Shown: positions 6,901 through 31,651 of the stretch, piece by piece | Layout of the letters: each line of letters starts with the position of its first letter | Position numbering within the stretch: the first letter of the stretch is position 1 | NCBI RefSeq assembly: GCF_964355755.1 | Contig: NC_092673.1 | Location: forward strand, 25,665,648 to 25,729,647 | Length of the DNA: 64,000 bases | From: Antedon mediterranea | Taxonomy: Eukaryota; Animalia; Echinodermata | Direction of reading: 5' to 3' | The notes under the pieces: generated by a model | Databases searched by the model: none | Told to the model about the DNA's origin: nothing | The model's input: only the letters and a program-made list of their open reading frames with translations | Made by a program: the position numbers and the translations under genes

Positions 6901-9900
6901 TTTCCAAAATACGTCGACTTGAGGGTGCTATTCATTTTCCAAAATACGCGAATTGTCCAAAATACGTTAACTTGAGGGCGCTATTCATTTTCCAAAATAC
7001 GCGATTTGTCCAAAATGTGTCATATTGAGAGTGTACTGAATAAAAACAAATATGTGCCAACATCAGTCAATAGACAGTGCCTATAATATAATAATGTCGG
7101 AACGATGTACGATTGCATTGCCAGACGTAGCTAGAAATGAGGCATAAACCGGCTAAAAACAGCATGTACAAGTATTGTCATAGGTGATGTGTTATATATT
7201 TGGTGATCTACAAAATTGATATTTTTCCCGAGCTCGATAGCCCAACATCGCTTTCAATTAATGGTTCATCTTTTCAATGTTGAAGATACAATTCTTTATA
7301 GTAATTTTTAAAACAGCCTCGCGTTTTGAAGGTTCGAATATTTTTTGGGAAAATTTGCGTATTTTGGAAAACTGTGCCTTCAAGTTGGAGGGTATGTCGG
7401 ATAACTTTCTTATTGTAGAAAATTAATAGCGCTACAAAAGTTGTTTTAAGTTGGATAACTCAAGTTGACGTATTTTGGAAAAATTCTGTGTATTTTGGAC
7501 TGATAGCGGATAATAGTTGGATAACTTTCAAATTTTAGAAAATTAATAGTGGCCTCAAGTTGACGTATTTTGGAAAATTACTAACGCTCTCAAGTTGACG
7601 TATTTTGGACAAATCGCGTATTTTGGGAAATTAATAGCGCCCTCAAGTCGACGTATTTTGGAAAGACTCGCGTATTTTGGATTAGTATAGCGCCCTCAAC
7701 TTGACGTATTTTGGAAAAAATTCTGCGTATTTTGGACTGAATTTCACCAACCCTATTGGATTATATCGGAATAGGCCTATAGAACATTTTGATTATCAGA
7801 ATAATTCGGTTGAGTAATTAAAAAAAAATCATATTTCTATTCCTTCCGCCTATTGTAAGGTGTGGCGCAGTGTGTTGGACGTTGGACTACTGATCGTGAA
7901 ACGCATTGCTTGTATCCTTAGGCAAAATACCTTACTTACGTTTGCCTCTCTCCACCCAGGTGTATACATGGGTACCCGGCTAGATTAAGACACAACTTTT
8001 TGATGATTACTAGCTGCATTATGGGAGTATGTTTCCATACGTGTTTGATGCAAAAATGACCGGAGTAATAATGTTCAGCGCTTAGAGGTTTCACAACATT
8101 AGGCGCTATGTAAATCCAGGATAATATTAATATAACTCATGCCCAATAAATGTGTGATGAATCGAACATTCTATACTATTTCACGTTTATATGTATTGTT
8201 ATTTAATAGGATATGTTACCAACAATGGGAATTACAACAAAATGAGAATTAGCGTGACTGTAGAGCATAATATGTGCAATCTGCATCCGTCGGGCTCAAA
8301 TGTATTCTATATACACGCCCATTATTCACCCACTCAGTCTGTAAAAGCTCAGTCATCTTTTACTTATAATCCAGACCCATCACCCGAGGTAAGCCTAATT
8401 TTGTTTTGAGAACCTGTATGCGCATTTGTGGCGTCCGTGTAGAGCAACTGGGGACCGAGTTTTGAATACGTTAAATACGTTGGGGACTAACTAAGCCTAG
8501 CAACCCTCTAAATAATCTAAAAACAAATGTATAAATACAAATTGGACGCGGCACAAGGACGTTAAAGTGGTTTGACCAATTATGACGCGTAGATCACCCA
8601 AACTATCGCTTGTGATTGGTCAACTCACTTGCGTCTACGCCTACCTCGTCGTGTTGCATCCAATGAAATGCAAGCTTAACAATATTATAAATTTACCTTT
8701 TCTCCTTGATATACTTGCTGATTTTACTCTCTTTTTCAGATCCCCGAAATACCTACACCGGATCCATACCCTTTGGAATGTTCACCGACTCCAGACGTTT
8801 TAATGTTTTCAAACGTGACATGCCGGATCATTTTATTGCTACGGGAATCACGAACGTCTGTATCAGTTGAAGTTCGTCTTAGAGAGTCCGCTTCAGAACC
8901 TATTCTATTCCATTTTGTACAAGAAACGTTCGATGTCCATACAATTGGTGACGGTTTAGATATAAATGACACCATTTCATTTAACGTCGATCCCGATGAA
9001 GACGGGTCTGCTAACAAAAAACTTGTTATCGAAATAGGCCCAGTCAACAAACTTGAATGTACGTAATTTTAAAATCACGTTCACCATTGCAATGTTTTTT
9101 TTGTATATTCATTTTTCATCCTGGATACATCCGGCCGAATGAGGACGCCTACATATTATGTTAATCTATATTAGTATTTGCCAACTCCCGTCCAGTATCA
9201 TCACGCAAAGTTTTGCTTCAAACTATTACAATTATTGATTTAAATTATTCAACAATTATTTGTCCTGTTAAAGTGACAACATCGTGTGTTCACTGTTCAA
9301 TTTTTTCCCGCATAAATCGTTTAGTTATTATTATTAGTCTGTCTGTTTGCTTGTTTTTATAGTTGCACCAACATGTCCAGAGAATTGGCTACTCGGTGGC
9401 AGCAAATGTTACGCTTACGTGGGGGAGAGCAGTGTATATTCTGATGCCGTTGGCATGTGTGAGCAATATAGCAGTACTTTGGTAATTGTTGAATCGTATG
9501 AGGAAAACATGTTTGTTCAGTTAGTGAATGGAACTGAACAGTTGGTGAATGAAACTGAACAGTTAGTGAATGTAACTGACAATGTAGTTTACATTGAGTT
9601 TGAAGGCATGTGGCTGGGATTGTCTGATTCATCGGTAGAAGGAGAATGGCGTTGGATTTCCGCAAAAGATGATTCTGTATATTCAAGTAAGACCACCATT
9701 AACATTAGAACGATATGTTCTTTATAATTTCTTACATTGAATACCGTGTTTCCGCGGCCATAACAAAATTATTGGTTAATTTGTTAACTAATCAGATAAT
9801 TATTTAAAAAATAAGATGCTCATGTGCAGACATTACCGACCAACCAATTAGCCAATCACACCGCAACGAATTTCCTTCAGGTCAAAAGTTAAAATTATCC

Positions 9901-12900
9901 GATATCCGATAATTATCTGATTTAAGATAATTAATTGGTAGGCCTACCATGTTTAAATTGTTTAAATTCACTTCATATTACCTTCTTTTTTCTTATATTT
10001 TTACAACATTATTAACATTCTAATAATCTTATCAAATTTAGACTGGAAATCAATTAAGACATGTGATTCTACTAAGAACTGCGCGTTTATGGATATAAAT
10101 GGAACATGGGTATCCAGATCCTGCGATGAAGGTTTAACTATGAATGTTGTGTGTGAACAAGGTATGTGATGGTTAAAAGAACGGATGAGAACACGTGTCA
10201 ACTTACGTGGACCAATCAAATTTCTTGAATGTTGTTCTAAAGTTGTAAATAATTTTACAATCCCAATTACGGGCCATAATTATCATAACAAAAATAAGAA
10301 TACCACATAAGAATTACGTAATAACACATTAATTTCTTATTTAGGAGCAACATTTACAAGCAGTGAGCGGTTCCAAATGAGCTTAAACTTCTCATTTAGG
10401 CCTTATTCAATCGGAGACTTCATTATAGAAGCTACCGTGGACCAAGACGGTATTCTTGAAAATACCGATGCAGCAGAAATCAGCGTATTCCGCCCAGAAG
10501 CAGCTAGGGCTGAATTAATGTTAACCTATGCCTTCGATTCTTCCCTATCATATACTGTACAGTAAGTATATATTATCAAACAGTCAGGCAGGATTCTTTT
10601 CTTGATCGAGTGCAGTGTTAACGGTATAGCTCGATTTTCGCAGGGCCTAATAAACACCAGGTTTTAAATTAATCTTTGCTGTCGAATAAACATAACAAAG
10701 ATGTAAACAAACGTTTTAGTGAGGGTTCTCTTTTATGTGTGAACATAAATGTTTATATGTACAACTTTATAAATTGTAAATATAATAATAAATTACTATC
10801 GTATGTATATTTTTGATGGGAAACACTGCTCAAATTAGTATAATAATAATAATAATAATAACAATAATAATAATAAAATAATATAATAACATAAACCGTG
10901 TCTACCATATTATCTAGAATGGTAATTGCAATCAACTACAACCTCTAGACCTAGACCACAGAGCGAATTGCTTGTGAGCAAAATTACTGCGAATTTGTTT
11001 TATTATAATTGTCAATGTCTTTTGCAGATCTTTGATTGAAATACACTTTACTCTAAAACCAACCATGCAATCGGCTATTACGGCCGCCAACGTGTACATA
11101 ATGTTTTATCTTCCGAAGTTATTTAATTATGTGTCCGCTAACTGCTCAGAAACTGTCATCCCAACAAACTATGGTGTTAAAATATTGGTGAGTTTTTTAA
11201 TAGAATGCGACATTTACTAATTGGATTGCTTCATTTAACAATAGATATCCCCTTAAATTAACGTAATATGAATGGACGAACACATGTCGAATAAATGGAC
11301 GAACACACGAATGAATGGACAAACACACGAATGAAAGGACGAACACACGAATGAATGAACGAACACACGAATGAATGGACTAACAAATGAATGAATGAAC
11401 AAACACATGAGTGATGAATAGATGAACAAACACCCGAATGAATGAATAGACGAACACACGAATGAATGGACGAACACAACGAATGATCGAAGACACGAAT
11501 GAATGGACGGACACACGAATGAAAGAATGAACGAACACAAATGAAAATAAGATAATCATCAGCAACTGATAAAACTCTATTGTTTGTTCATACTATCAAT
11601 AATTACATGGAATTGAATATAACATAATAATATGCAAATAATGAATGTTAATGAGTGGAATGGTACACATAATAGCATAAGGTGAATGCTAGGCGAAGTT
11701 GAAATATAATTTTTCATTATTGACCGAAAAAGCGAAAAGATTTTTTTTTCGTGCATGAAAGATCTGTAAAAGTACTATTGAACGACCGTTCAATATACTG
11801 CGTACTATTGCACGCCATGTGACCCGCAATCGTCTAATCAAATGACAAGAATTTATTTATATGTTATATAATATGTATAACTTACAAAGCTGTGAGACCA
11901 TACCAACTATGTATGCAACACTATTTAGCAACAAAATTGAAGTTCGCATAAGTTTCAGTATTTATTAATTTATTTGCTAATGTGAAATGTATCCATTTCT
12001 ATTAACAATTATGTGAGCTGTCCTTTCCTCCTTTTCTAGACGTCCAATATATTTCCAGGAGAAGAACCTCTTCAGTTTAAAGTAACGTTTTCTGTTTCAT
12101 CGGACGTAAGCCTATTTAAAGAGAAAAATATATGCAAAGGAACAATATTTGTCAGTACTGTTTACAACCAAACGTATTTTGAAGGAAGTGAATACGCAGA
12201 GAATCATTTATTTGAAATCAAAAATTTGATCACGATTGACGTTACTCATCCTGACTTAGGTACGTAGTGTGTTTGACGTACTGTGTGTAAATAACATTAT
12301 TAACACACATGCTTTTGTTTTAATGATGATGATCGGATGGACTTTAAGCCGCGTTGGTACCATGAATATGAAAACCAAAGTATGCGATAAATAACTACGG
12401 TTGCACATTATTCGAACAGAACATTATGGGATAATCTACCGATTTTCCCCAGTTTCCAGTTAAGCGTGGTTTCCATTTGTGACTACGCAATGTGTTACAT
12501 TAATACGTAGTTGCGTTGCGTCCTATTGGAAATATACATAATTATACATTGCCTTCTAACTCGAAAAAGTTTTATAGTTTTATATATTCAATTGATTATT
12601 ATACTGTATTTAAATTGTCTTATTTTTATTATTAATACTGTACATTAATTTCTAACCTTACAGGATTGGTCCCGCGCTGCACGTCACCCGTGGCACTTGG
12701 TATGGAAAGTGGCCGCATAAAAGACTGCCAGATTACGTCATCAGAAGCCCCAGATGAAGACGCGCCTGCGCACAATGCCAGGTTAAACATGACAAATACG
12801 GGTACTTTTTGTGCATCTGTTGAACTTGATTATAGATGCTATTTTATTATATATCTTTTGACAGGGTTTTTAAACACAAGTGCTGCAAAAGCCTCCCCCA

Positions 12901-15900
12901 TCCCCAACCACCCCATCCAGCCCAATGACATATACAAGGTCCTCAATATCATATTGTCCTATGCAATATACAGTAGAACCAATCCGTTGGCACCAGAGAC
13001 ATATTACCAGAGAATCCAGTAACATCCCTTGCCGACAATTTTGATGTCCTGTAACTCTTTGTTATGTAAATAAGGTTTCCCCTTAATAGAAGTTTTACTG
13101 TACTTAGACATAATACATCATCTTTAATCTTATACATTTACAGCCTGGAAAATATACCGAAAACATGAGCTGGATAACCATGATAGTTGGCTAGCGATAG
13201 ATCTACTCTATAAAGCAACTATAACGAGCATAGCTACACAAGGCGGCTTGCGGGTCGGAACGTTGCATGATTTTCAGGGTTCGATTGGAAGTTTTCAGTT
13301 ACTTTATGGTACAAAGAAAGGCGTCTATAAGGTGGCTTTACCCAGAATACAGGTAAATGTGACATCTACTGTAGGCCTATGAGTCCGTTACTGACTGAAT
13401 TATCGATCCGGTTAAGCTTGGTTCCCACTAGAACGTAACGCAAGGACGTAAACGCAACGCAAGCGTTTAACCAATGACAAGTTATAGACAGTTAGCAATC
13501 ACAAGCGAATAAGCCATCGCTTGTGATTGGTCAATTCGCTTGCGTTGCGTTACGTCCTTGCGTTGCGTCGCTAGTGGGAACCACGCTTTAGTTGGATCCT
13601 ATAGCGACACGACAGCGATAAATGTACATACGTAACCAACTTACCCATGTAAATAATAGGCCTGGACAGAACCTATTACTTGAGACACACAACAAAACAT
13701 AACGTTGTACTGCCATTACCAATAGCACAATATACTTCTACCACTAAAAACGACTCTTTGTCAATGAATGTTAAATGTTAATGTTAGAACTCATAATTTA
13801 CCTTCGGATATTCGATACCTCTTGAAGGGTAGTCGATCGCGTGTGTCTGTTTGAAGATTGTAATTGTTTTCTGCTTTTTTATATAATTTCTAGAGTGATC
13901 CAAACAACAAAACGTATTTTGAACATGGTATACTTGACCCGAGTATTGTAAAGCACCACAGCCTTTTACCAGCCGTCGATGCTCGCTATGTTATGTTCAA
14001 GTTAGAACGTTACTGTCTGCATCATTTTGCAAGCATGAGAGTGGAGTTGTTCGGTTGTTATTACGACGACTTCAATGATACAGGTATATCAAAGCACCGT
14101 TGTTTTTTTTTCTTTTTCAAGCAAGAAATATTAAACATAACTTACCGTTCCTCATCGTACACCACTCTAGATGAGTGGTGCAAGAGGCAGGTAGGCCGGT
14201 CGTGGCCCTCTAGTAGCTAAAACGTGTAAAAATCAAGAACGTAATTATTTTAGGATTACAAAATAATCTAAAAGGCCATCACAACCACTGCCGTAACGTT
14301 GATAACGATCCCTCTGCCTCTGGTGATATATTTTATATATATGATATGATATGGTGATCTGGAGAAAACTGCTATGGTCATTTTCCGTTCATTTCACCAA
14401 ACAAGTGTGAACTTTGCTATGAGCACGCCATTATTAACTACCAGTAGCGGATCCAGGATTTTGAAATAGGGGGAGGGGGGGGGGCCTTAAAGTAGTGAAA
14501 TGAATTGCTGAACTTAATTTGATGTCCTATCTTTTGCATTACAATTTGTGAAATGTTTGGGCCCCGCATTGAATCCGCCTCTGACTACTGACAACGCATT
14601 AACATACTATGTGGCCGTATTTCCAGAATGCTATAGAATGACAGATGCTGTTGATTATCGAGGCTCAGTCAATATCACCGTAACTGGGAAAACGTGCCAA
14701 CTTTGGACATCACAGACACCCCATAGGCATACAAGAACTCCAAGCAATTATCCTGATACGGGTTTAGGCAGTCACAACCACTGCCGTAACCCCGATAACG
14801 AACCAACTGCCTGGTGTTATACAACAGATCCGACCTCTAGGTTTGAATTTTGTGATATCGGCAACCCTGGAGAAAATTGTTACGGTATTAGTATAGTTCT
14901 TCAACGTAGCAAAACAGTGTACCTCACTATCACGCCATTTATAGTTATCACCACACAAGGCACTTGGTCTGTTTATTTGTCTTATGTGTGTATGCCTGAT
15001 AACTGTTCTTTTACAGACGACAGAGTTTTATGTACGTTTTATATTTTGAGAGATACATAAGCTAACAGCAATGCATTCACAGTGCTTTTATGTATGAGTA
15101 AACTCGTCTCTGTCCCGTCAAGTGGCAATGCCGTTCGTTGTGCAGGCTAAAGAATAGGCCTAGATGGTTCGGATCTGGCGGCTTGGCATTCTATCAGATG
15201 TATGTTTTATCGCACTATAATAGTTTTAACACCACATTTGTATTGTATAATAACATAGATTTTGGTTTGTATATAGTATTTAGACTGTTGATATTATAAA
15301 CTTTGCACATGATACGATCGTAGTTCTGATAACAACAGTTTCTCTGCGTTTTGATCAATAAGCTTCGACGTATGCAAGGATATAATGTACAGTATATTAG
15401 TACAACCCTGTTTAGGGACACAAAATAGTACGTGTCCCCTTTATTTGAATGTCCCTTAAGCATGGTTCCCACTAGAACGCAACGCAACGACGTATTGACG
15501 CAAAGTGCTGTATTGCGTTATCACAAGTGGGAATCGACGACGCAACAACAGTGCTGCAAATATCGCAGGTTTGATTTCACGCAGGCGAGGGCAAACACAA
15601 TTGTTGGAAGGGCATTTTCTTCCGTTGCGTAGGTTGCGTTACGTTGCGTCGCTATTGGGAACATAAGCTTAAAGCTTGGTTCCCACTAGAACGTAACGCA
15701 AGGACGTAAACGCAACGCAAGCGTTTTAACCAATGACAAGCGAAGTTATAGACAGTTACCAATCACAAGCGAATAAGACATCGCTTGTGATTGGTCAATT
15801 CACTTGCGTTGCGTTACGTCCCTGCGTTGCGTCGCTAGTGGGAACCACGCTTTAGGAGTTAGCCGTAGTGCTAAAATAAATATTTCCTCTGGCTCTTTTT

Positions 15901-17808
15901 AGGGAAAAGTCTCTATTAACAGAGACGTATTATAAATTGTGTCTGAATTATTGATGTATGCTATATTGGTGAGATCACCTTTCCATAATTAATACGATAT
16001 TTTTATTATCCATACTATTTTCAGATTGTACTGTCTCCAATTCATTCCAGTCAGGCCTTGGTGAACAATCACGAGGCTTCATGGTAGTTGATGATCAACT
16101 ATTTGTTTGCGATTCTTTACCGTCCAAATTAGAATACAGTGACGATGCATTCGGAAATAGACTTTATTATAACTTTACACGGTGCGTGTTTATTAATGTT
16201 TTTATTGTTTAATAACAAAATTAAAATGTAGTTTTAAATCTTCCTAGTACAATTCTGGTCATTTTCACTACATATATTAATGGATACACAGGTAGTGAAA
16301 CAAGTTGTATAACAAACAAAAATACAAATTCTATATCTCTCTCTCTCCCCCTCCCCCTCTGGAACTAAATAGGCACAATAAGTTTTAATACGAGGATCAA
16401 CACCTTATTATTCAGTGGACACTGTTATGAAAGGGAATTGTTTTGGGCCTGTACTGAACGTGTCTCCTTAGTAGGACTTCTACAAATACAATGTTTATTA
16501 TTGTTTTTCTTCTGCCCGTAGAAATAATATGTTGGGATCATATTGTATGAAGAAACGATTTGATGAACAAACTTGGTCACGTAAGTATTATTTACGTCTA
16601 CGTTAAAGGCACCTATAAAAACAATTCCTGAGGAAATGCGTTTGTAAGAATATCTTATAAATAAAACTTAGTCAGGAATTACGTCGCCATTTTGATTGTC
16701 ACAGACGTTTGTTGTTATCGGTGTATCCTCATTTTTTTGTAACACCCGGGTGTCACTGGGTTATTGTAAAGTGAGGATGGATGGTACGATCCCTCAATAG
16801 GCCTAATATCTTTATTGAAGTCTGATTTAACCTTTCCTCAGGATTATGATACTTAAAATAATTTAAAGTTTGATGGCACTAGTTACAAGTCGTTATGCGT
16901 GATTGATTAATGGATGACGTAATGCATAAACGGCATAAATAGGGAGAAGGATTTGTAATCTGGGGTGACTGGGAGTCTGGTATGCGTCATACTATTGTAA
17001 CAAGACATATGTTGCAATTAGTTATACATTCTCTTTCCTGAGCTGATCGTTCAATTCATAAAACTGACCAGAATTGCACTTTTCCACTTTTGAAGGCTTG
17101 CCACCAGACGTTAGCATGCTTCTAGGTTACGATTCGGAGTCGTTCCATTTATACGGCACAAAGATCTCTGATACAAGTGGCACGGCAGTGCGCAGCATTG
17201 ATAATGGACGTAGCTGGCATGTGATGATGTCATGGATGTATGCCGAAATAAGGGACTCTTCTACGTTTGTATCAATAACAAACGTGCCAGTAAAGGCAGA
17301 AGATGATTTTAATTGGTTGAATCAGTCAAATATTCTTAATAATTATATCATTGGAAATATAGGAGGTAAGAAGACGGTTTTTATTTATTATCGTATTTGT
17401 GTTTTAAAGCTTAAATAATATCTTTCTTTTTTTATTTCATACGCATCCAATAGCGAGTGACTCGCCAATTACAGGATGGATAAACTATTTAATATTTTAG
17501 GTGCTTATTTGAGGCTTAGGAAGTGGAGTTGAAAGAGTCGTGAGTTACAACCCTGGTACTAGGTCAGGATTGAACCCCGGACCTTAGGATAGGAAGGCAA
17601 GCACGCTAACCACCAAGCTACAGCTCTACTTTGATCTGCATGTTCTATATTTACGTTTATACATTAACATATTCTATCTATTTTATTTCACTCTATAGCA
17701 TCCTATGACGGGATATATACGAATGTGAACGGCGACTGGCAAAGACTACTAAATTGGAAACAGTGTTGTTTGCAATCGACTGCCAACTATACACAACCAT
17801 GTGTATAA
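735..17808 (+). CDS. Probably 5'-partial, 21-exon gene for a large extracellular mosaic protein (beta-rich repeats + C-type lectin + F5/8 type C discoidin + kringle + Asp-box C-terminal region)
   Basis: Exons 735-932, 1519-1770, 2044-2256, 3424-3688, 4342-4526, 6100-6382, 8210-8388, 8740-9058, 9363-9686, 10042-10161, 10345-10561, 11028-11187, 12040-12259, 12664-12801, 13144-13352, 13894-14083, 14627-14884, 16025-16181, 16522-16580, 17096-17365, 17699-17808. All have AG/GT boundaries with matching phases and join to 4326 nt (1441 aa + TAA). No signal peptide is seen and position 735 follows a splice acceptor (tttcag). Confidence 0.88.
975..1174. mobile_element. Kolobok-like MITE
   Basis: TTAA|AGGACAACT...AGTTGTCCT; internal inverted repeat ATCGCGAGATTAAGGATATCGC / GCGATATCCTTAATCTCGCGAT. 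Confidence 0.6.
1519..1770 (+). CDS. mosaic protein exon
   Basis: aaatag|ATAGAT...TCTACG|gtaaga; IDNDIKLDLERTEGDQVMHPGDK... Confidence 0.82.
2044..2256 (+). CDS. mosaic protein exon
   Basis: ttcttctag|CGATAT...ACTGAG|gtatga; open frame RYKYAAY...FITNLTTE. Confidence 0.8.
2326..2520 (+). mobile_element. 5S rRNA-derived SINE (SINE3-like), 5'-truncated
   Basis: 2326-2376 GCCTGGTTAGACCTTGGATGGGAGAC...ATCGGGTGCTGTA resembles the 3' half of 5S rRNA and is followed by a non-5S body. Confidence 0.6.
3060..3165. repeat. interspersed repeat shared with 11770-11870
   Basis: GCGTACTATTGCACG.CATGTGACCC..AATCGTCTAATCAAATGACA is present at both sites. Confidence 0.7.
3424..3688 (+). CDS. mosaic protein exon
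   Basis: cctttag|GAGCCT...TGCC|gtaagt; ends DFGALINC, phase 0/1. Confidence 0.82.
3855..4110 (+). mobile_element. tRNA-derived SINE with Deu/Nin-like central domain
   Basis: A box TGGCCGAGCGG, degenerate B box GGTTTGAGGC, body TCGGATAAGTACTATAAACC; related fragment at about 530-690. Confidence 0.6.
4342..4526 (+). CDS. mosaic protein exon
   Basis: atttcag|AAACT...GAATCC|gtaaga, phase 1/0. Confidence 0.8.
4535..4880. mobile_element. PIF/Harbinger-like MITE, family B
   Basis: TIR AGCTTGGTTCCCACT / AGTGGGAACCATGCT; ATA and TTA flanks. Confidence 0.8.
6100..6382 (+). CDS. mosaic protein exon
   Basis: tttacag|TATGAC...TCTG|gtaagt; ends MGRMINS, phase 0/1. Confidence 0.82.
6810..7755. mobile_element. 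non-autonomous foldback / hAT-like element with long subterminal inverted repeats
   Basis: Ends GGGTTGGTGAA...TTCACCAACCC; about 200-bp inverted arms built from repeated TCCAAAATACG units; no clear TSD. Confidence 0.75.
7858..8118 (+). mobile_element. tRNA-derived SINE with CORE/Meta-like body and L2-like tail
   Basis: A-box head GTGGCGCAGTG, then TCCTTAGGCAAA...GCCTCTCTCCACCCAGGTGTA and tail AGCGCTTAGAG...GGCGCTATGTAAAT. Confidence 0.6.
8210..8388 (+). CDS. mosaic protein exon
   Basis: taatag|GATAT...CCCGAG|gtaagc, phase 1/0. Confidence 0.82.
8740..9058 (+). CDS. mosaic protein exon
   Basis: ttttcag|ATCCCC...GAAT|gtacgt; ends IEIGPVNKLE, phase 0/1. Confidence 0.78.
9363..9686 (+). CDS. 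C-type lectin domain, first exon
   Basis: CPENWLLGGSKCY...A..MC...LV.V.S.EEN.FV...WLGLSD...EGEWRW matches the CTLD consensus; phase 1/1. Confidence 0.9.
10042..10161 (+). CDS. C-type lectin domain, second exon
   Basis: NWKSIKTCDSTKNCAFMDINGTWVSRSCDEGLTMNVVCEQ; phase 1/1. Confidence 0.88.
10345..10561 (+). CDS. mosaic protein exon
   Basis: atttag|GAGCA...GTACA|gtaagt, phase 1/2. Confidence 0.8.
11028..11187 (+). CDS. mosaic protein exon
   Basis: tttgcag|ATCTTTG...ATATTG|gtgagt, phase 2/0. Confidence 0.8.
11268..11541. repeat. about 20-bp minisatellite (ATGAATGGACGAACACACGA)
   Basis: About 13 degenerate tandem units; explains the spurious minus-strand ORFs here. Confidence 0.9.
12040..12259 (+). 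CDS. mosaic protein exon
   Basis: tttctag|ACGTCC...TTAG|gtacgt, phase 0/1. Confidence 0.8.
12664..12801 (+). CDS. F5/8 type C (discoidin) domain, exon 1
   Basis: CTSPVALGMESGRIKDCQITSS...ARLN is the typical FA58C start. Confidence 0.9.
13144..13352 (+). CDS. F5/8 type C domain, exon 2
   Basis: AW...WLAIDL...ITSIATQG motif; phase 1/0. Confidence 0.88.
13415..13587. mobile_element. PIF/Harbinger-like MITE, family A
   Basis: Palindromic element of about 175 bp with TTA on both sides; near-identical to 15673-15851 and 38537-38715. Confidence 0.85.
13894..14083 (+). CDS. F5/8 type C domain, exon 3
   Basis: ARYV...SMRVELFGC motif; phase 0/1. Confidence 0.88.
14279..14378 (+). pseudogene. decayed kringle pseudo-exon fragment
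   Basis: TCACAACCACTGCCGTAAC..GATAACGA...CTGGTG.TATA...CTGGAGAAAA.TG.TA.GGT parallels the real kringle exon at 14773-14886. Confidence 0.7.
14442..14583. mobile_element. short hAT-like MITE
   Basis: CAGTAGCGGATCC...GAATCCGCCTCTG termini with a G-run; partial copy at about 22968-23005. Confidence 0.55.
14627..14884 (+). CDS. kringle domain exon
   Basis: CY...YRG...T.TGKTCQLW....PH.H....YP..GL..NHCRNPD.....WCYT......EFC; single phase-1/1 exon. Confidence 0.93.
15459..15851. mobile_element. two adjacent MITEs (family B 15459-15669 + family A 15673-15851)
   Basis: Two TIR-bounded units separated by a shared TAA. Confidence 0.85.
16025..16181 (+). CDS. mosaic protein C-terminal region exon
   Basis: tttcag|ATTGT...ACACG|gtgcgt, phase 1/2. 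Confidence 0.78.
16522..16580 (+). CDS. mosaic protein small exon
   Basis: ccgtag|AAAT...TCAC|gtaagt; NNMLGSYCMKKRFDEQTWS, phase 2/1. Confidence 0.75.
17096..17365 (+). CDS. mosaic protein exon with Asp-box (SIDNGRSW)
   Basis: tgaag|GCTTG...GGAG|gtaaga; contains S-x-D-x-G-x-S-W. Confidence 0.8.
17458..17627 (-). mobile_element. tRNA-derived SINE (same family as 61768-61922)
   Basis: Reverse complement has A/B boxes (TAGCTTGGTGGTTAGC, GGTTCAATCC) and the shared ATCCATCCTGTAA segment. Confidence 0.65.
17699..17808 (+). CDS. terminal coding exon of mosaic protein
   Basis: ctatag|CATCC...; ASYDGIYTNVNGDWQRLLNWKQCCLQSTANYTQPCV*. Confidence 0.82.
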
Positions 17809-21018: not shown

Positions 21019-23450
21019 AATTATCATTTATTTCCTTAATTTGTCGTCATCATCATCTTACAATAAATGTGCAGCAATGAGGCAAAAGTCAGCTGTAGAT
21101 TGAAGGGGGTGCGAATATTTTTTTTAGTTCCAGAGTTCCTCTAAAAAGCTAACAAGTTTTGTTGTTTCCAACAGTAAGACTAAGATAACATAAGAGCATA
21201 TCGAAATCTCGGTTAGCAGTCTATATACACTATTCACGTCTCCTAAAATGCTCACACTGGCGTTTTGTACAGCTTGTACCAACTCCACAGATTTGCAGGC
21301 GTGATGTGGAAAAGGGTTTTTAGTCTATATATGTTGCATTGATCTATAAAATAATATCTCGTTTAGCAGTCATTCACCAGTCACATCGCCTATAGACTAG
21401 ACAATCTCACCCTGGCGTTTTGTACAGCCTGTGCGAACTCTAGAGATTTTCTAGGCGTGACTTGAAAGGGCTATTCCAGTATTTCGTAGGCCTACCTGTT
21501 TTTTTAAACGTTAGTTCCACCTCTTTAAGCCAGTCTACGCCTTGTACAACATCCTTGTCACTTAATGATTTTATTTTGACATATTAAGCTGCTTATGATT
21601 GGGTTATGTTTTGGTCCCAATTCCAAAACAACTGATATTTTAATTAGCCTATGATGTTAAATTCACGAGAGTGGAAATTGTCGAACTATTGCAGATCATT
21701 CGTTTTCTCTCAAATCTTTAAATATCACGAATTACTAATCATTGTTTTAAATTACAGAACTATAATCACACATTATATATATATATGTTTTTCATTTATT
21801 TTATTAAAAAAAGCAGTGTTAAAATATTTGACATAGAAATTTTTTTTTTTTAGTTTTTTGCCTTTTTTATTACGAAATGGCTGAGAAAAAACAAGAAGCG
21901 ATTTGAAATCATCAGCACTGCTAGCCATTGCAGAACTTAATATATATATTTAACAAGGTATAAATAACTTATATAATGATTATAAAGAAGAATAACATAT
22001 TGCACTATATCATCTTGTATGCGATCTTAACCTTACATGTAAACAACACACATTTAAGATATACTTAAATTCCGACTGAAAGTGGCTTTGTGAATTTTAG
22101 GTGGGCGTTCATAACAACGCTTACCATATCTAAATAATAAATAAGCTCAAGCTTCTACTAATAGCACCTTTATAATATAGGCCAAGCTAAAGACAATGAA
22201 CTACTATATTTCATACCTTTCATTAAAGCTAATATTTTCTATATTTTGCCAAAATAAAGCGAAAATTTGGTCTTATTGGAATAATTACTAGCATGACGTC
22301 ATACATTATGCATTTTAAATGAGATCAATTTTTGGAATTAATTATTCAGGATATGGAAAAAATAGTCAAGATTTACATACATGTGGACATTAATGTATGC
22401 TGTATAATGTATTTTACTAAGACAATCGATCAATCTTTTTATTTATAATTTGTTTTTGTAAATTATCACCATTGATAATAACATTAACATTTATAATTCA
22501 AATCCTAATATATTTCAAGCATTAACCATACACAGGCACAAAACGTCCACTAATAAAAAATAAAATTACATTATAAACTGTATAATAAACATTATAAGAT
22601 GCATTAAGATATCAAGCGCTTCCCATACTGCAAAACCAAATTATATAACCTGGATTAGAAGAATGTCGCCTGATAAAAAAAAACATAATTATAACAATAA
22701 AAAATCACAAATATGGAAGTCTTGCCTGATAATTTCCGTTTACCACGTAAATATAACTATATATAATGTTATAAATCAATGAATGTCTGGAGATTATACT
22801 GTCAAACGATATCCGATGACTGGCGTGCGTACAACAATATTACTGTTCATCAAGGTACAAATATTGTATTATACGCTTATAGTCTAATACGAGGTAGCGA
22901 CTGTAGTAATGGTAATGCTATATATACTGTCCGTGTAGGAACACTGTCGCGTTATATCATAACTCGTCAGTGTCAGATCCAGGATTTTTGTAAATAAGGG
23001 GTGGGGCACAGGACCTAACAATTGTAAAGTGTTAAACCTATTCTTTTAATCGTTTGCATTGCGATATTTGAACTGTTAACATAATTCTTAATTATTATTT
23101 TACAATACGAGTTATTAAACTTAGGCCTCCTAATCCGATATAAACGCGTATACGTGCGTAAAGTTGGATATATATTTTGTCTGTATCTCAAAAGTAATAA
23201 TTTTTAACCGTCTACGCAATAGAAATGGGTGAATGTCATTGGTTGTTGTGGCTTTGCGCGCACTAGCCTAAATCAAAGACGATAAATATCAAAGGCATGA
23301 CCCTGTCTCGAACACTAAAACCCTGTTTGAGCTCGCTTAGCGCTACAACCGACTTAATATTTACCCTGCAACAAAATCGAGTGCGTGCTTTTTTGACTGA
23401 ATAAAATGTTCACAAGTTGAATATAACAGACAGAACAATAAATATCTTAA

Positions 23451-23619
23451 AATAAATAATATAAATATGATAACTACATTCAAAAACATTTGGATGGATT
23501 TATATTTAGAATAAAATTTGTTCTCATGACGTCATTGCCTCTGACCACTTAAGGCAAGCTTATGAATCCAATAATAAATAGTTAATAAATTACCATAAAT
23601 ATTAAATAACATTTTAAAT
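23451..23619 (-). promoter_or_regulatory. AU-rich elements in the 3' UTR of the cytokine-like gene
   Basis: Five AUUUA pentamers in 23575-23619 and a UUAUUUAUU nonamer at 23451-23459 on the transcript strand. Confidence 0.5.
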
Positions 23620-23782
23620 AGATCTTTGGTATTCAGCTGAAGTGAATTAAACAATATTGTTCGTTTTAACTTTCTTCATTCGTTTCTAAAATTTCAAACT
23701 TTACCCCTTTCCTCGTAGATCATTTCTATTGCAATAGCGCTGAACTGTAGAGGGTGGGGCCTACCGTTCACAGGATGTGACG

Positions 23783-23965
23783 TTAACCACTGCGTGCGCG
23801 CGAGAGCCTGTTAATATCGCTTGATAGAACGGGAGAGTAATGCGCAAGCTCACGTAAAACAATAAGGTCTCGTCTGTTGATTTCCTCGTCATCAGCATTC
23901 GGGCTAAATATCAGAGTTGACGTCACAGGTGTTTGGTTGATGCCTACCAAATTTTCTATATCCAT
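23783..23965 (-). CDS. cytokine-like gene exon 5 (CD loop + predicted helix D)
   Basis: ttttcag|ATGGAT...GGT TAA, 183 nt. Confidence 0.87.
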   Translation of the reverse strand: MDIENLVGINQTPVTSTLIFSPNADDEEINRRDLIVLRELAHYSPVLSSDINRLSRARSG

Positions 23966-26900
23966 CTGAAAAATATGATGTGACTGATAAGACAACGTTA
24001 TGTTATGAAATTAGTTATAATCGTATTGTTTTTAATTAAAGAATTTAATTATTATAAATCAACAAGTATACATCATACATTTTGATAATTACTTTTATAA
24101 ATGATATGCAAATTCAATGCGAATGAACTCATGTTACCCGCACCTAACTATTATTAAAATTCACTATTTAAAAAAAAAATCTAAGTACTGCACCGGAAAT
24201 AATTATGACCTACCTAATGATGTAATCCAATATTACTAACAGTCATATTGGAAAAAAACTAATAACATACAATCCGGGTCATTGAAATTAAGGTATACTT
24301 TAACAATATGAATAATGCATACTCATTAAAATGAGGTGTTAATGAAGCTTAATAATATTATTCCGATTTAAGAGGACACTGAGTGAAACGACTAAGGAGC
24401 AATGTATTAAATTTTAACACTACGCTCAACCCATATTCACGAGAGAAGTTACCATTTGTGCACATGTTTTATGAATCATTAATTGACATTCATTTTAATT
24501 CGCGCTTCAAAATGTTCACGCTATTATATTTATGCGTAATATATTATTAATGTATGCTATTGACAATCTTTCGTTCAAAATAAGTGACTAGATCTGCAGT
24601 AGGCCTAAACATAAAATAAAAAAGGGTTGCGATTTATCTGTAGGACGTCCCCTATAGTATCGAAACTATGTCAGCATTCCAGTTTTTATCCATGTTCGGT
24701 ACATAACCTGCGGTTTATTTACCGTAATAATCTGTTTGTTTTTAAACGCTTCTTCTTCAACCACATGTATTACCAAACAATTAGGCCTAATTATAGATAG
24801 CTACGTCTACCACAAAAGGAAATAGTGGCTTATTGCATAAGCGTAGGTTATCATTTGTAATCGCCATCCCTGATGTTTTCGTGGAGTGGGAATTTTATCA
24901 CATTCTTAGGCCTGCTAATTTGTGTGTTACTATGTGTACAATTTAATGCAATTTCACAATGTTTTAATAGGTGAAAATCAAAGCCATCCCGTTCATTTAG
25001 CCTAGAGCAACTCTTGCATCTTTTCATGGAGGAATATAAAGTCAATGTCAGATATTGCTTAATCGGAAATGCCATGACAGGGTGGGAACCCTCGTTGACA
25101 AACAAAATTCCGTCAAAATGACGACAGATCCGCATTCCACTAATTTGCCCAAGAAACACGACACTGCTTATAATACTTGGCTAATCCAACTCAAATACCA
25201 CCATCAGAATAATTAGCTTTGAGTCGGTGTTATGTAATAAGGTATAAAAACAATTTGCAGTCATTGTTTTCTATAATATAGGATTTTTAGACAATTTTGT
25301 TGTTTTTGAACGGTTGGTGGGTTGTTCTATTTGTCAACCAACAGAGAGCACGTGTGAATAGCAAATTGTTATTACGTTGAAGATGGACCTTGTTATCCCA
25401 CGTATATTGCATAACGAACGTAACCTTTAATAAACGCTATAGATAACAATAATATTTACATGTATGAAAATATTAAAATTATTAGTTTAATAAACTAACG
25501 GCTAATTGATCTAGTACAAGCCCGGTGTGACATAGAACTATTACTATCTAGGCCGATGTGGCAGAAACGTTACGTGATTATAACAAGAACTCGGCACCGG
25601 GCTCGGCGTTCCACTTCCGTTTACTGAGCGTGTGGGGTTGTATTTAGAGGCCTGGTGTTTCTTGCGATGATGTCATTGTAGCTAATTCGACGACCGATGC
25701 TGCAAACTGACAAAAATTGTCGTAATCGGCTTAAATTCTATTTCACAATTGCTGACTCATTATAATAACATTTTATTGTTTTGATTTTATATGGATGACC
25801 TCTTCCAGTGACAAGTTAATATACTTGTTGTTACTAGTTTTATGGAATTTATTATTACGCTGAGTGCATATTTTAAATTTCTAAAATTGTAGGGGTAGAA
25901 CGGAAATGTTTGTATTGTGTTGTGTTTTTGTTATTAATTAAGCGTTATAGAAAGTTTTTATATACCCTGCATGGGGTGTCAAAAGTGGAAGTTAAACGTT
26001 ACACCCTTTTTGATGGAAAGAAAGGAATGAAAAGCGTGGGCAATATGATTTATATAAATCATGTTTATGTTTATTATAACAATTTATTATATGAATCGTA
26101 ACGGGAAATAACAACATCTAAACCACCCAGGGATGATAATGTCGAGTATTGTATTTTGGAGCAAAATCTCCATGGGTATTTAATTTAATCAATCATTTAT
26201 TTATCTTTATTATTTAAAAAAAAATGATTTGGTTTACATTACAGAAATGTGGCTGCTACAATCGATGTTTATATTGGCTTTTTTTTATTATTTATGTTCG
26301 ACAATATTAAACATCACCGATCTATGTATTTTATTACGTTTTACTGAGCGACAGTGCATACAATACTCCTATTGTTATTAGAACTAGAATAAACGAACTA
26401 TTGAGTTCATCCTGAATTGCATGATAGGTGGTCAGTGATATTATGAATTTTGGTTGTTTGACGTTGCGTACTAATCGTGATACGGATCTGGATGAGAAAT
26501 TCAATCCGAATTGACTGCAGTAGTTTCATTTGGACGATTTAATCAAATACCACTTAAGATATTTCTATAATTAAGCCATGATACATCTAAGACATTAAGA
26601 TTACGCACGGATCTTTACTCCATTAATTTTATATCCTTTTCGTACTATAAATACAAAAACTGGACTAAATCACGGCTTTGTGACGACGTGTTGACTAGTT
26701 AGCGCCCGTGTGTATTCATAGAGTGGGATATGCTACCGCTAAGATAATACAATTTATTTTAAAGATGGGCACTAATTAATTATTAACCATAGAGTGAAAT
26801 ATTTCACTCTTTCCTCTATTTGTATTGGACGTTTAATTGTTCAGTCTATGACTATTAGTCGTAATAGTTCAACCTGTAAAGCAGTGCCGCAGTAGTTTAA

Positions 26901-29900
26901 CCAATCGGTGTTGAGGAAGGTTACAGTATGAATAATCATACGTCAGAGACTATCAACGCGCGCGTTCAAATTGTGATATTGATGCCATTAATAATAATGG
27001 TAAAAATGATGATACAGTAAACCCCTATTAAGGAGACGCAAGTGTCCCCTTGATAGGAGTGTCTCCTGAATAGGCCGTAGAATGTTAAACATACTATTTG
27101 CTCCTCGTTCGTTTCATGGGGAAGTGTTCCCTTAATAGAATTGTCCCAAAGGAGGGTTTAACTGTATTATACATTAAAATGAAATGATTGTGTATACTCA
27201 CTATATGTTGCAATCCTGCTATCAAGGTGTTTAGTTTTGATCGAATTGCTCGGAAGTTTGTTCTAAAACTATGTGAACCAGAGTACGTTTGTTCATCGGC
27301 TTCCATATATCTTAATGCACGTTCAAATATTAATAGATTTGAAACATGAGTTTCAAGGACATCTGCTTCCTGGTAACAAAGCAAGAAAAACAAATTCATT
27401 ATAAACGGAGCGGTGTAAAAAAAAACAATTAGTTTAAGCTTCTTTATTATGTCATCGGATGCGTTCCATAGTCAATTAACTAGTGACGTAAGCTATTTTG
27501 CAGCAAATTGTACCAGAAATAGGTAAAAAGTTATTTTAGAAAAGTCTTTTTTAGAATTTGGGATAAGATTTAATACCCTGTTTTCATGCAAGTGTAGTAA
27601 ACACTGCAGATGAAGATGATAAAATCACTGGCCGTTCTGGAAATTCTAAATAGGCCTTAAGTCTTTTTTTTAAGGAGTAATTTTGACAGATAATTACTTA
27701 GTAGTATTTATTCAAGAATTAATTACTTTTTATGACGCAATATAAATGTAGAGAATGTGACAAATTTATCTTTGTTCTCCTTGGTATAAGACCTGTAATT
27801 AAAATAATTGCTAATGATAATCAACCAAAATCATAAACAGTCTGGTCAGGTAGTATACTGTTGGTTTTTTAACAAAAGTACCGGATTGTCAAACTGTTAG
27901 GTCGTGGGAAAAGCATACCAATATGTGACCAATAATATGCCTCTAATTTGAACTGCTTAACAATAAATAAACGTGTTTTTCGTTTTTTTTTAACATAAAT
28001 TTCTTTTGCTGTTTGTGTAGATTAAATATATGTTACATTGTTTGATGTTTACTTCTACTCTTCAGTAATTCGGTAATTACTCATATATCATATAAAATCC
28101 CAAATGTATTTAATAACAATACATAAATGATTTCACATTAGTACAGAGACAGTGAACATGCTCGTACTGAAATCATTTCCCTTGTAATAAGACATGGCTC
28201 GTACATTACGTCATTTCTATATGCATTGTCTGCATTAAATGACTGAAAGTTGTGCTATAGGCCTATAGTTAGAATTAATCTATATAATAAGTAATTGCTA
28301 TTAGGCCTATCATTACATTATGTATTTTAAAAATATAAGCATTCTATTCTCAATAGCCGGTAAATATATTTTGACGCAAATAGGATCCCCCATTTCATCC
28401 TCCCTCTGTTTTCCTCCTTCCTCTCTCACCGTCCTTCTTTCTTCCTCTCTGACCTTCCCTTCTTCATCCTCCCTCCCGTTTCCTTCTTTTTCTCCCCTTC
28501 CCTCATTCTTTTCCCCTTCTATCCTTCTTCCTCTCTCCTCTTCTCTCCTTCATCCCCTTACAGTAATGACCAATTACTAAACTATATGGCTACTTAGTAC
28601 TAGTGTAGATCTAGACAGATTTAAAGTATCACAATATCGATTTGTCTACTTACACTTGCAGCGTGCCTTTGTGCGTATGTCCAACTTAAATGATTCGGAA
28701 GACCTGTCAAATACCAATTGGAACTCATGGTATGGCCAACCCGTAACGTTTCCTATAAATAAAATATAACACTGTTATCAAGTGCTTAATACAATTATTC
28801 CATAAAATATATAATATTTGTTGCACTGTTAAGGTCAACGGATAGATAAAACAGACCAGTTAGCCGTCTGATGGGAAAGTCTAGGTCATAAATGATTAGG
28901 CTTTTGAACATTTGAATCAGACAAGAGCTTATTAAGTACTATCTGTTAAAATAACATAAAACGTGTTGAATTAATGTCGAGCATCCGACAGCCTAACGCA
29001 CCGGTGCGCCTTCAACCTAGCCCAGTGGAGAAGAACCGCGGGAGAGTCCCAACCTGTCTACTATCATAAGCGTGGTCTTCGTACATTTTTACCCATAATT
29101 CTGGAAATAAGCCAAGAAACTTGACGAGTATATATGACACATACATACAAAAAATCACTTTGATTACGGGAAATAATTGCTTGAATACTAACAATGATGA
29201 TATTTCAATTATCCGGACTGATCTTTTTTTTTTCTAAACTTGTCGGTTGGATAGGAAAGGACATCCGGCAATACAAAATGATAATATTGCCAAATACCAG
29301 TATTACAATGAAATCTAGTTAACATTTAAAGCCAGTCATTCATGTGTCCCAAATTTGTATTACTACGGATAACTTGTGAACAATTAATTGAATGAATTTC
29401 TACCACCCGTTGAATAGTTTGCAAAGGTAATTCGGGTTCACACATAATCCATTGGATTTTATAACAATTTTAATGGGTATGAAGTAATCAAAACAAAAAT
29501 AACCCTTTTTAAAATTCCTACTGTTTACAAACAGCAACCTTGGAATTATTTTTATCATTATACTTATAATATAGATATATGCATAGTATAGTAAAATAAC
29601 ATTACCAGGCTTACAACTTTGCTATCATATGAGCCTGTACTACAGTAGTTTTGCTTCGATCTTTTACAATTTATCGCGTACTTCATTTCTGACACTCCCT
29701 AGCCTTCATTCTAAGATTAATTTTAAAGCCCAGCCATAAGGACACCAATTTTATTTTGTTTTTACAAGTTGAATAATTCAATAATTCAATGTAAGCTATA
29801 ATGTATATTTTACAACACGACTTAAACATAATTCAGTGCCTTTCTTTCCAAAATTCAAATTAGCAATATTAAAAAAATAATCTCAATGTCTGCTGCCAAA

Positions 29901-30485
29901 CTTGCAATATTAACGTTAAACCTCCTTGTAGATATACGCTTATTATGTGTTATGTTATTCAAGCAAAATTTTACAATGACAATATTTTATGCAACAAAAC
30001 AGATACATTTACATAGATACATGGATTTGAACTTACAAATTGACTATATGTCGAAAATGTCTCCCGAAACATGTGCATTGTCTCTTCCCGCATCGCCGAA
30101 TATAAACGGGATACAGTTAACGTTGGAGCAGACTTTGCCAATTGTATAAATATACTAAACAAAATCATAACTATATAGACAAAGAAAATAGAAAGATAAA
30201 AGTAAAAATACGCTATAAATACAAAAATGCAAAGAAAATTAGAAATGTTAATGAATCTGGAAAAAAAAGTTAATTTCTTGAATATAAGGAGAAAAGTTAA
30301 ATATGGCACAATTCACAGCATGCGCTGTTGAATTTAGTCTGTGAGATTAAGAGATCAACCAGGTACTTAACCTAACATATCAAAGATGTCATAAGAAAAT
30401 AAATAAGCAAAAAAATAATATGAAACAATGTTATATTGCTATACTTACAAATAAAACGTCGAATACTACTTAATATCAGAGCCAT
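23783..30485 (-). CDS. Secreted four-helix-bundle cytokine-like protein (IL-11/IL-6-family-like), 5 exons, 206 aa
   Basis: Exons 30485-30449, 30170-30037, 28752-28654, 27369-27202, 23965-23783; GT-AG, phases 1-0-0-0. Protein: MALILSSIRRFIFMILFSIFIQLAKS-APTLTVSRLYSAMREETMHMFRETFSTYSQF|ETLRVGHTMSSNWYLTGLPNHLSWTYAQRHAAS|EADVLETHVSNLLIFERALRYMEADEQTYSGSHSFRTNFRAIRSKLNTLIAGLQHI|MDIENLVGINQTPVTSTLIFSPNADDEEINRRDLIVLRELAHYSPVLSSDINRLSRARSG. The gene model is strong; the family assignment is inferred from patterns. Confidence 0.8.
27202..27369 (-). CDS. cytokine-like gene exon 4 (predicted helices B and C)
   Basis: ttaccag|GAAGCA...CATATA|gtgagt, 168 nt, phase 0/0. Confidence 0.87.
28393..28558. repeat. 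polypyrimidine (CT-rich) low-complexity tract in intron 3 of the cytokine-like gene
   Basis: About 165 nt almost entirely C/T on the + strand. Confidence 0.8.
28654..28752 (-). CDS. cytokine-like gene exon 3 (AB loop, LTGLP)
   Basis: tttatag|GAAACG...GCAAGT|gtaagt, 99 nt, phase 0/0. Confidence 0.8.
30037..30170 (-). CDS. cytokine-like gene exon 2 (end of signal peptide + predicted helix A)
   Basis: ttgtctatatag|TTATG...CAATTT|gtaagt, 134 nt, phase 1/0. Confidence 0.85.
30449..30485 (-). CDS. cytokine-like gene exon 1 (start of signal peptide)
   Basis: ATG GCT CTG...ATT T|gtaagt, 37 nt, phase 1. Confidence 0.8.
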
Positions 30486-30629
30486 AACCAGTATTTTCAA
30501 GTGTTTCCGACAGTCGTATATTCCTTGTCCTTAATTACTCTTTTATTTGCCGAAAATGATATCCGTATGATATACACGCTTCTGTTTCGGCTTGTATGAG
30601 TTAACTCAGCAGCTATGGTTTTAAAAGCA

Positions 30630-30702
30630 TTTTATATACGTCGGCAAAAATCATTGGTCAACGATCCGAGCTTTGTGATTGGCTGGTTCCCTGTTCACGT
30701 CA
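30630..30702 (-). promoter_or_regulatory. core promoter of cytokine-like gene: TATA box, two CCAAT boxes, CRE/ATF-like site
   Basis: Minus strand TATATAAAA (30638-30630), CCAAT (30657-30653 and 30682-30678, the latter in the context AGCCAATCAC) and TGACGTGA (30702-30695), about 145-215 nt upstream of the ATG. Confidence 0.65.
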
Positions 30703-31402
30703 CCTCCTCCAGAAACTTCATTGCTGTGATCAAACGTTTTGATTGACTGTACTGGCAAGACAGACAGATACATATTCAATCAATTATGAATTTACAAATG
30801 TATTTGAAAAACAATAAGCGGTTATTCTGGTTAGTTAAGAATATGTAATACAAAATAATGTCGAACATTAAAGGTCAATAAATAATGATAATGGTTAAGG
30901 CCTGATTTCTACTGACGCTTATGGTGTGTTTCTGGATAATCCCTCCGCCCACTAATCGCTCTGATAGGTTATTGCAATTAGTACCACTTCTTACATACAA
31001 TAAGGTGTGAACATGAAATGTATAGCCATTTCATTAGAATAGATGTCCTCTGTTCAGTTGTTTCTAAGCACAGGAAGTCTTTGAAAATAAAGTATTCGGA
31101 TTATTGATGTTAATTTTACATCGTAATGTTATTCTTCTATGTTATTAATTATAATGTCTTTATAATCAGTACGTGTTTGGGGTTTTTACGCTGAAGAGGA
31201 AATGGAAATTGCAATGTTTTATGTTACGAATGTGCTAGTTGAGTGGCTCAGTGATTATATAAAATAATATAGCAGTCTCAATTAAAAAATAGTGTTTACT
31301 GAAAGCCCTTATTCTAATGCACTAACTGTGGGGAATAATTAATTTAATTAATTAGATCATGTGAGAATTATTATTGGTATAGTTTACTCATTTATATATT
31401 TT

Positions 31403-31651
31403 AGTGTGACTTCTGTCTGCTAGTGTGACTTCTGTCTGTTAGTGTGACTTCTGTCTGTTAGTGTGACTTCTGTCTGTTAGTGTGACTTGTGTCTGTTAGT
31501 GTGACTTGTGTCTGTTAGTGTGACTTGTGTCTGTTAGTGTGACTTCTGTCTCTTAGTGTGACTTCTGTCTGTTAGTGTGACTTCTGTCTGTTAGTGTGAC
31601 TTCTGGCTCTTAGTGTGAATTATGCTTGTTAGTATGACTTCTGTTTGTTAG
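31403..31651. repeat. 19-bp minisatellite (AGTGTGACTTCTGTCTGTT), about 13 units
   Basis: Direct tandem units about 0.8-1 kb upstream of the cytokine TATA box. Confidence 0.93.

Follow-up and report, generated by a model that had tools for sequence, protein, structure and literature searches.

A candidate long-chain class I helical cytokine encoded by a five-exon gene of the crinoid Antedon mediterranea

We analysed a stretch of 64,000 nt from the genome of the crinoid Antedon mediterranea (contig NC_092673.1, positions 25,665,648 to 25,729,647 of the forward strand; called the window below), which carries on its minus strand a five-exon gene for a protein of 206 amino acids (aa). Judged by predicted fold, size, leader and gene layout, this protein is likely a long-chain class I helical cytokine. 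An earlier note on this DNA, made from the sequence alone, had called the product IL-11-like. The structural comparisons described here support a wider label, that of a predicted long-chain class I cytokine nearest to IL-11, CLCF1 and CNTF. The protein is likely a new candidate of this type in a lineage that was reported to lack IL-6-family ligands. We consider it probable that it is secreted and signals through a gp130/Domeless-type receptor to JAK/STAT.

Results

The gene and its product

The coding exons are located in the window as follows.

30449..30485, minus strand: coding exon 1, 37 nt, with the start codon and the first half of the likely signal peptide; phase-1 donor
30037..30170, minus strand: exon 2, 134 nt, with the remaining part of the likely signal peptide and most of predicted helix A (residues 27-57)
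28654..28752, minus strand: exon 3, 99 nt, with the end of helix A, the long AB loop and a short helix (83-88)
27202..27369, minus strand: exon 4, 168 nt, with helices B (91-117) and C (126-149) and the short BC loop
23783..23965, minus strand: exon 5, coding part, 183 nt including the stop codon, with the long CD loop and helix D (172-205)

Introns 1-4 have lengths of 278, 1284, 1284 and 3236 nt and phases 1-0-0-0, and all are of the GT-AG type with pyrimidine-rich acceptors. The spliced frame of 621 nt encodes 206 aa without any cysteine and has a single, terminal stop codon. The product is letter-for-letter identical to the RefSeq entry XP_071946783.1 (P0005; Antedon mediterranea, "uncharacterized protein", 206 aa), which was also the single match when exon 4 was used as the query in a search among longer proteins (29 candidates). 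The five minus-strand exons with consensus splice sites and the cysteine-free 206-aa open reading frame (ORF) proposed in the earlier note were thus reproduced, and its assumption of an invertebrate source was right, since the product is that of a crinoid. The five-exon gene is real. It is annotated at NCBI, but unnamed, and because NCBI has the identical model it is not a "hidden" gene, as the earlier note had put it.

Predicted fold

The protein was folded with AlphaFold2 from a 14-row alignment (A2) that has no vertebrate cytokine among its named rows. The model reached a predicted local distance difference test score (pLDDT) of 87.8 and a predicted template modelling score (pTM) of 0.80. 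Helices were placed at residues 27-62 (A), 91-117 (B), 126-149 (C) and 172-205 (D), with the additional short helix at 83-88, and helix A runs continuous with the signal helix. The four long helices of the predicted model are arranged up-up-down-down with long AB and CD loops and a short BC loop, as is the case for long-chain class I cytokines, and this arrangement had been proposed in the earlier note. Exon 4 starts exactly at helix B. A model of the query is also present in the ESM Atlas (pTM 0.76).

The model was compared by VIA-align to 48,161 representative solved chains. The best match was IL-11 (8qy4) with Z 19.8, a root-mean-square deviation (rmsd) of 2.8 Å, 163 aligned residues and 14% identity. 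It was followed by CLCF1 (Z 18.6), IL-27p28 (17.8), placental lactogen (17.2) and CNTF (17.1), and further down by LIF and IL-6 (both 15.9), OSM (15.2) and growth hormone (14.9). Ranks 1-11 were occupied by long-chain class I cytokines and ranks 1-32 by helical cytokines throughout, while the first unrelated chain had Z 8.6. Foldseek, named together with AlphaFold in the earlier note as a check, likewise returned cytokine-type four-helix bundles: all 44 matches listed were long-chain class I cytokines, with IL-11 at the top (E 2.5e-3), and an IL-11 mutein was matched with a template modelling (TM) score of 0.82 by target and an rmsd of 3.1. The likeness to IL-11 suspected earlier is therefore seen with both programs, IL-11 being the nearest structure. 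In a viral structure library no match reached E 0.001, and among the 50 matches listed only herpesvirus K2 exceeded TM 0.5.

By features, the 10 matches listed in the ESM Atlas scored 0.91-0.94, and nine of these clusters hold cytokine-family members, with shares of 10-69%, from the families CNTF, IL6, GCSF, IL11, LIF, IL12 or Hormone_1. The sea-urchin relative described below has the same feature neighbours. By structure, the top match was an unnamed, mostly mollusc cluster with TM 0.81, 11% of whose members belong to PF00489; the next match had TM 0.51. This mollusc cluster (114 members, 229 aa) and an unnamed, mostly arthropod cluster that is also among the nearest ones by features (53 members, 191 aa, feature score 0.94-0.95) are candidate protostome relatives.

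A family of relatives in echinoderms and a hemichordate

A HMMER search over 1.84 billion representative proteins (E 0.001 or better) gave 10 matches. Besides the query itself, these comprise 8 relatives and a single repeat artefact; the latter (P0011, a repetitive protein of 655 aa from ENA) was discarded. Searching with a profile yielded 8 proteins, including 5 new ones. Named members come from Anneissia (crinoid), Amphiura (brittle star), Strongylocentrotus (sea urchin), Patiria, Acanthaster and Asterias (starfish) and Glandiceps (acorn worm), and all members with a name are "uncharacterized", none having a functional one. Neither chordate nor sea cucumber members were named among the matches of the family searches, and no Upd protein was named among the family sequence matches. 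When the whole protein was searched by word index, the sole match among 161 candidates was the protein itself. The RefSeq relatives are the following.

Anneissia: XP_033110287.1, XP_033103059.1, XP_033102914.1
Amphiura: XP_072041021.1
Strongylocentrotus: XP_001200744.1
Starfish: Patiria XP_038045367.1; Acanthaster XP_022085396.1
Glandiceps: XP_077997519.1

Their identity to the query is 26-46% in the matched stretches, with E 5e-21 to 2e-4. The closest relative is XP_033110287.1 (46% identity), which is the sister of the query in the tree (support 99/96). Asterias rubens also has a family member (P0023). Two RefSeq chains of Amphiura filiformis, P0009 (326 aa) and P0015 (327 aa), each hold a partial and a full cytokine domain; they represent either a true tandem cytokine or neighbouring genes fused by annotation. 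These chains with more than one domain were omitted from the alignments A1 and A2, as were P0016 and P0017, the cluster mates of P0010.

The relatives also support the gene model. A profile of 13 of them, with the query left out, was run over the six frames of the window and placed just four ORFs above threshold, namely exons 2-5. The matches are colinear with E 4e-16 to 1e-3, the next-best ORF of the window having E 1.1. No further family member was found in the 64 kb. The modelled junctions of introns 2, 3 and 4 score best with this profile out of 6, 12 and 6 open-frame combinations of donor and acceptor. For intron 1, which is located inside the signal peptide, the profile does not discriminate between the 10 combinations, the acceptor at 30212 coming out 2 bits above the modelled one at 30170. 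Full-length relatives align across the three junctions of introns 2-4 with no interruption there. The Anneissia protein XP_033110287.1 (P0007) tracks the query through exon 3 and then continues with 5 codons that match a read-through into intron 3 of Antedon. This protein appears to be a truncated model running into intron 3, and by sequence the read-through suggests that a second crinoid has its intron-3 donor at this position. Five sequencing runs were listed for 23300-30700, none of them recorded as RNA; the contigs of three showed no exon joint, which bears on neither expression nor splicing. Of 28 listed differences, one, a synonymous change, is located in coding sequence. As the length of the exons would lead one to expect about 2, polymorphism has no power here. 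A tblastn search with the relative P0006 suggested a second copy at 8437-8324 (E 0.004), but this stretch has a stop codon inside and no match to the profile, and was rejected as a paralogue.

Leader and conserved residues

Residues 10-24 are hydrophobic (mean hydropathy 2.1) and are followed by a conserved cut region of the type small-small-x-Pro. The signal peptide likely comprises residues 1-26 and would be cut after residue 26, leaving a mature chain of 180 aa (27-206) with an isoelectric point (pI) of 6.2. A predicted leader and a mature chain of this length agree with the long-chain class I cytokines, which are secreted chains of about 170-200 residues with an N-terminal signal peptide. 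Pro28 is common to 12 of the 13 aligned rows that have a residue there. In the AB loop of exon 3, R61, G74 and P76 are invariant, and the CD loop of exon 5 has one N-glycosylation sequon (N156). The query lacks cysteine, and no cysteine position is conserved among the 13 listed family proteins.

Sequence-level link to CNTF

When the family profile was compared to 177,635 PDB sequences, CNTF was found at ranks 1 and 2 (E 0.016 and 0.022), the next match having E 0.34. The alignment to CNTF starts in the AB loop, extends through the whole of helix D and comprises 128 positions. The invariant G74-x-P76 of the AB loop, D115-E116 at the end of helix B and F125 before helix C are in register with CNTF, and so is the L183-x-E185-L186 pattern of helix D. 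With a smaller family profile CNTF was at rank 2 (E 0.49). This profile signal is weak when taken alone and is independent of the fold prediction. The whole protein gave one chance match only among the PDB sequences (E 0.77), and single exons gave nothing useful against Pfam and the PDB sequences.

These data bear on the question of whether an unrelated secreted four-helix bundle, which uses no cytokine receptor, could have converged on the cytokine shape. The lack of a significant Pfam or single-sequence match would fit such a protein, and middling Z values can be reached by chance for helical bundles. However, Z was 19.8 over 163 residues as compared to 8.6 for the first unrelated chain, the profile match to CNTF is independent of the fold prediction, and the exon layout and AU-rich elements are of the cytokine type. 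We regard convergence as highly improbable, and common descent with the vertebrate class I cytokines as very probable.

Gene layout and position among the class I cytokines

Introns 2-4 of the vertebrate IL-6, IL-11 and G-CSF genes have phases 0-0-0, and the growth hormone and prolactin genes share the same five-exon layout with phases 1-0-0-0. The Antedon gene, with five exons and phases 1-0-0-0, has the layout of the IL-6/IL-11/G-CSF type, as described in the earlier note. As an argument for IL-11 this layout is weaker than it had been taken to be: since growth hormone and prolactin genes share it, it argues for a wider long-chain class I ancestor and not for IL-11 specifically. The residue-level likenesses to IL-11 listed in the earlier note are also weaker than implied there; structural identity is 14%, and CNTF gave the only signal at the sequence level. 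The VIA-align alignment pairs residues 32-204 of the model with residues 35-199 of IL-11. With these end points, and with IL-11 exon sizes that we take to be 7/173/87/162/171 nt, intron 2 would have the same offset in helix A and introns 3 and 4 would be located within 2-4 residues of their IL-11 counterparts.

The shared layout would also suit a class I cytokine with a role in growth or metabolism, as is the case for the hormones of the growth hormone/prolactin/leptin type. Such a hormone would dimerise a single receptor via sites I and II only and have no main immune role. Placental lactogen (Z 17.2), growth hormone (Z 14.9) and prolactin (Foldseek rank 4) are among the structural matches, Hormone_1 clusters appear at 0.91-0.92 in the ESM Atlas, and the site III position has no aromatic residue (see below). 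IL-11 and CLCF1, however, score higher (Z 19.8 and 18.6), and the family profile matches CNTF, whereas growth hormone and prolactin chains are absent from its 6 matches. Growth hormone and prolactin have conserved disulfides, but the query has no cysteine and none is conserved across the 13 proteins. An AU-rich cluster after the stop codon also speaks against a hormone. We consider this explanation unlikely.

The single groups of the clan compare to the query as follows. CNTF, CLCF1 and cardiotrophin (1cnt, 8d74, 8d7h; PF01110) are the only group with a sequence-profile signal and form the top feature cluster in the ESM Atlas; the F-x-x-K motif of CNTF, however, aligns to E-E-I-N in the query. 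CNTF itself has no signal peptide and only two exons. IL-27p28, IL-6, LIF, OSM, IL-23p19 and G-CSF have the same fold, with Z from 17.8 down to 10.2. This is also the case for growth hormone, prolactin and placental lactogen (PF00103; Z 14.9-17.2), but the query has no disulfides and no profile match to them. IL-11 (8qy4, 4mhl, 8dpw; PF07400) is similar in length, five exons, short phase-1 first exon and AU-rich elements. Five exons are described for the IL-6, IL-11 and G-CSF genes (PMC13081863, PMC3271213, PMC6389648, PMC5716431), and mammalian IL-11 is also without cysteine (PMC3271213). The query differs from IL-11 by the lack of a Pfam match and of a site III aromatic residue, and by its pI of 6.2 as compared to the basic IL-11s (PMC3271213). 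The conserved cysteine signature of IL-6 and G-CSF, as quoted in PMC5716431, is absent from the cysteine-free query, which is therefore not IL-6 or G-CSF proper. We conclude that the protein is better placed in a sister group of the IL-6/IL-11/CNTF clan, made up of invertebrate proteins, than among the IL-11 orthologues.

Several results weigh against this assignment. Folding of the query without the alignment, done as a control, gave a poor model (pLDDT 49) with similar helix positions. No Foldseek match had E 0.001 or better, and structural identity to every cytokine was at most 18%, the highest being to IL-27. A Pfam scan of the protein found no family at E 10; when 14 family members were scanned, CNTF (E 0.17) and IL11 (E 0.26) were the sole families to appear, once each and below the cut-off. 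A hydrophobic hot spot of site III at the start of helix D was not found in the query: F152 of CNTF, which we take to be a site III residue, aligns to E173 in the weak profile alignment, and residues 173-174 are Glu-Glu. None of the three full-length crinoid proteins has an aromatic residue at these two positions, and residue 174 is Phe or Tyr in 6 of the 10 non-crinoid rows (6 of 13 rows overall). For IL-6, the site III hot spot is Trp157 (PMC7378365). Finally, a 2012 paper described the purple sea urchin as having no apparent cytokine receptor signalling system (PMC3296744).

Because the site III aromatic residue is absent in the crinoid proteins, a two-site complex, a composite cytokine and an antagonist are further options. 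In the latter two cases the protein would need a soluble receptor-like partner, or would occupy a receptor without clustering it. CLCF1 and IL-27p28 at ranks 2 and 3 (Z 18.6 and 17.8), the 18% structural identity to IL-27 and the acidic residues where other family members carry an aromatic one are in line with this. The Z gaps of 1-2 between these matches are small, however, the query has a full hydrophobic leader, and a scan of the 8 long plus-strand ORFs of the window revealed no gene for such a partner. We judge a composite cytokine or antagonist to be quite improbable, and prefer a ligand that signals through a gp130/Domeless-type receptor.

Regulatory features and genomic surroundings

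Two putative regulatory regions flank the coding exons.

23439..23619, minus strand: AU-rich cluster in the inferred 3' untranslated region (UTR); 8 ATTTA, 5 TATTTAT and 2 nonamers within 483 nt after the stop codon
30632..30702, minus strand: likely proximal promoter; TATA-like box 153 nt before the ATG, CCAAT at 30682 and 30657, CRE-like element at 30702

The 8 ATTTA motifs compare to 2.2 in 5000 base shuffles (p 0.0006), and 8 were reached by 1 of 264 non-overlapping windows of the same size on both strands. ATTTA motifs characterise the 3' UTRs of cytokine genes (PMC3271213). The cluster hints at an inducible mRNA of short lifetime, like those of signals in inflammation or wounding; we regard this as a reasonable possibility. 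The promoter elements are weak, being pattern matches only, as TATA and CCAAT occur 3.6 and 4.6 times per kb in the window. Strict NF-kB, AP-1 or STAT sites were not found in the 1.2 kb upstream; a single loose kB-like site at 30943 was not used as evidence.

The closest neighbouring gene that was recognised in the window has several exons and is located on the plus strand (1500-17400). By Pfam, one of its exons is of the C-type lectin type (9338-9724, E 7e-7) and another of the kringle type (14518-14880, E 2e-23). Its ORFs at 12636 and 13894 are discoidin (F5/8)-like by eye, without a Pfam match. Introns 2 (30036-28753) and 3 (28653-27370) have the same length of 1284 nt, probably by coincidence. 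Intron 4 harbors a short high-copy repeat (27040-27156), which is matched by many contigs from sequencing runs that continue into unrelated sequence; no inverted repeat of at least 14 nt was found in 26900-27200. Minisatellites are located at 31401-31651 (19-nt unit, 13 copies), about 900 nt upstream of the gene, and at 54216-54606 (16-nt unit, 24 copies). The region 31000-64000, about 33 kb upstream, has only five stop-free frames of at least 100 codons and may be a gene-poor regulatory region.

Discussion

IL-6-family ligands were reported to be absent from invertebrates (PMC8226699, 2021), and leptin and IL-6-family cytokines were stated not to be identified outside jawed vertebrates (PMC12284397, 2025). 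A survey that included echinoderms and hemichordates found IL-6-family cytokines in vertebrates only, using BLAST with a 30% identity filter (PMC13203501, 2026). A structure-guided search in a 2026 preprint extended IL-6 to lamprey and hagfish only (PMC13081863), and a Foldseek screen of invertebrate proteomes was targeted at the interferon fold (bioRxiv 10.64898/2026.05.30.728932). The main text of a 2026 paper on IL-1 mentions neither IL-6 nor IL-11 (PMC13736523). We found no published description of the echinoderm/acorn-worm family or of LOC764451, a sea-urchin locus tag, in a literature search that left most subscription journals and supplements outside.

Gp130/IL6R-like receptors, JAK and STAT have been reported in invertebrates. 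One survey lists IL6R/gp130-like receptor sequences from sea urchin and acorn worm (PMC13203501), and contigs annotated as IL-6 receptor were up in diseased sea stars (PMC4503460). We propose that the Antedon protein is secreted, likely after loss of residues 1-26, and that the mature protein would be bound by a gp130/Domeless-type receptor through its cytokine-binding module, as known from the family (PMC7378365). The bound ligand would bring two receptor tails together, leading to activation of JAK and STAT; by analogy to the vertebrate cytokines, such receptor clustering with STAT activation seems probable. Invertebrate ligands proposed for gp130-like receptors are Drosophila Unpaired (Upd1-3) and an "IL-6-like molecule" of Asterias forbesi (PMC7378365, PMC8226699), the latter from 1996, as cited in PMC4503460 and PMC8226699.

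We also consider it slightly more probable than not that the family is an unrecognised ambulacrarian branch of the IL-6/IL-11/CNTF group. It would descend from a five-exon gene of the deuterostome, probably bilaterian, ancestor, the bilaterian origin being made probable by the mollusc cluster at TM 0.81 and the arthropod cluster with a feature score of 0.94-0.95. Its members would be the ligands of orphan echinoderm gp130-like receptors in inflammation and regeneration, and may include the starfish activity of 1996. That the activity of Asterias forbesi is linked to the echinoderm/acorn-worm family is a guess.

With echinoderm and hemichordate proteins that have the fold and layout of cytokines, the origin of the clan would date back at least to the deuterostome ancestor. 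The family gives concrete candidate ligands in sea urchin and starfish, both of which serve as established models for innate immunity and regeneration. According to surveys, echinoderms and acorn worms lack a JAK/STAT-activating signal, and the Antedon gene offers a candidate for it that can be put to the test.

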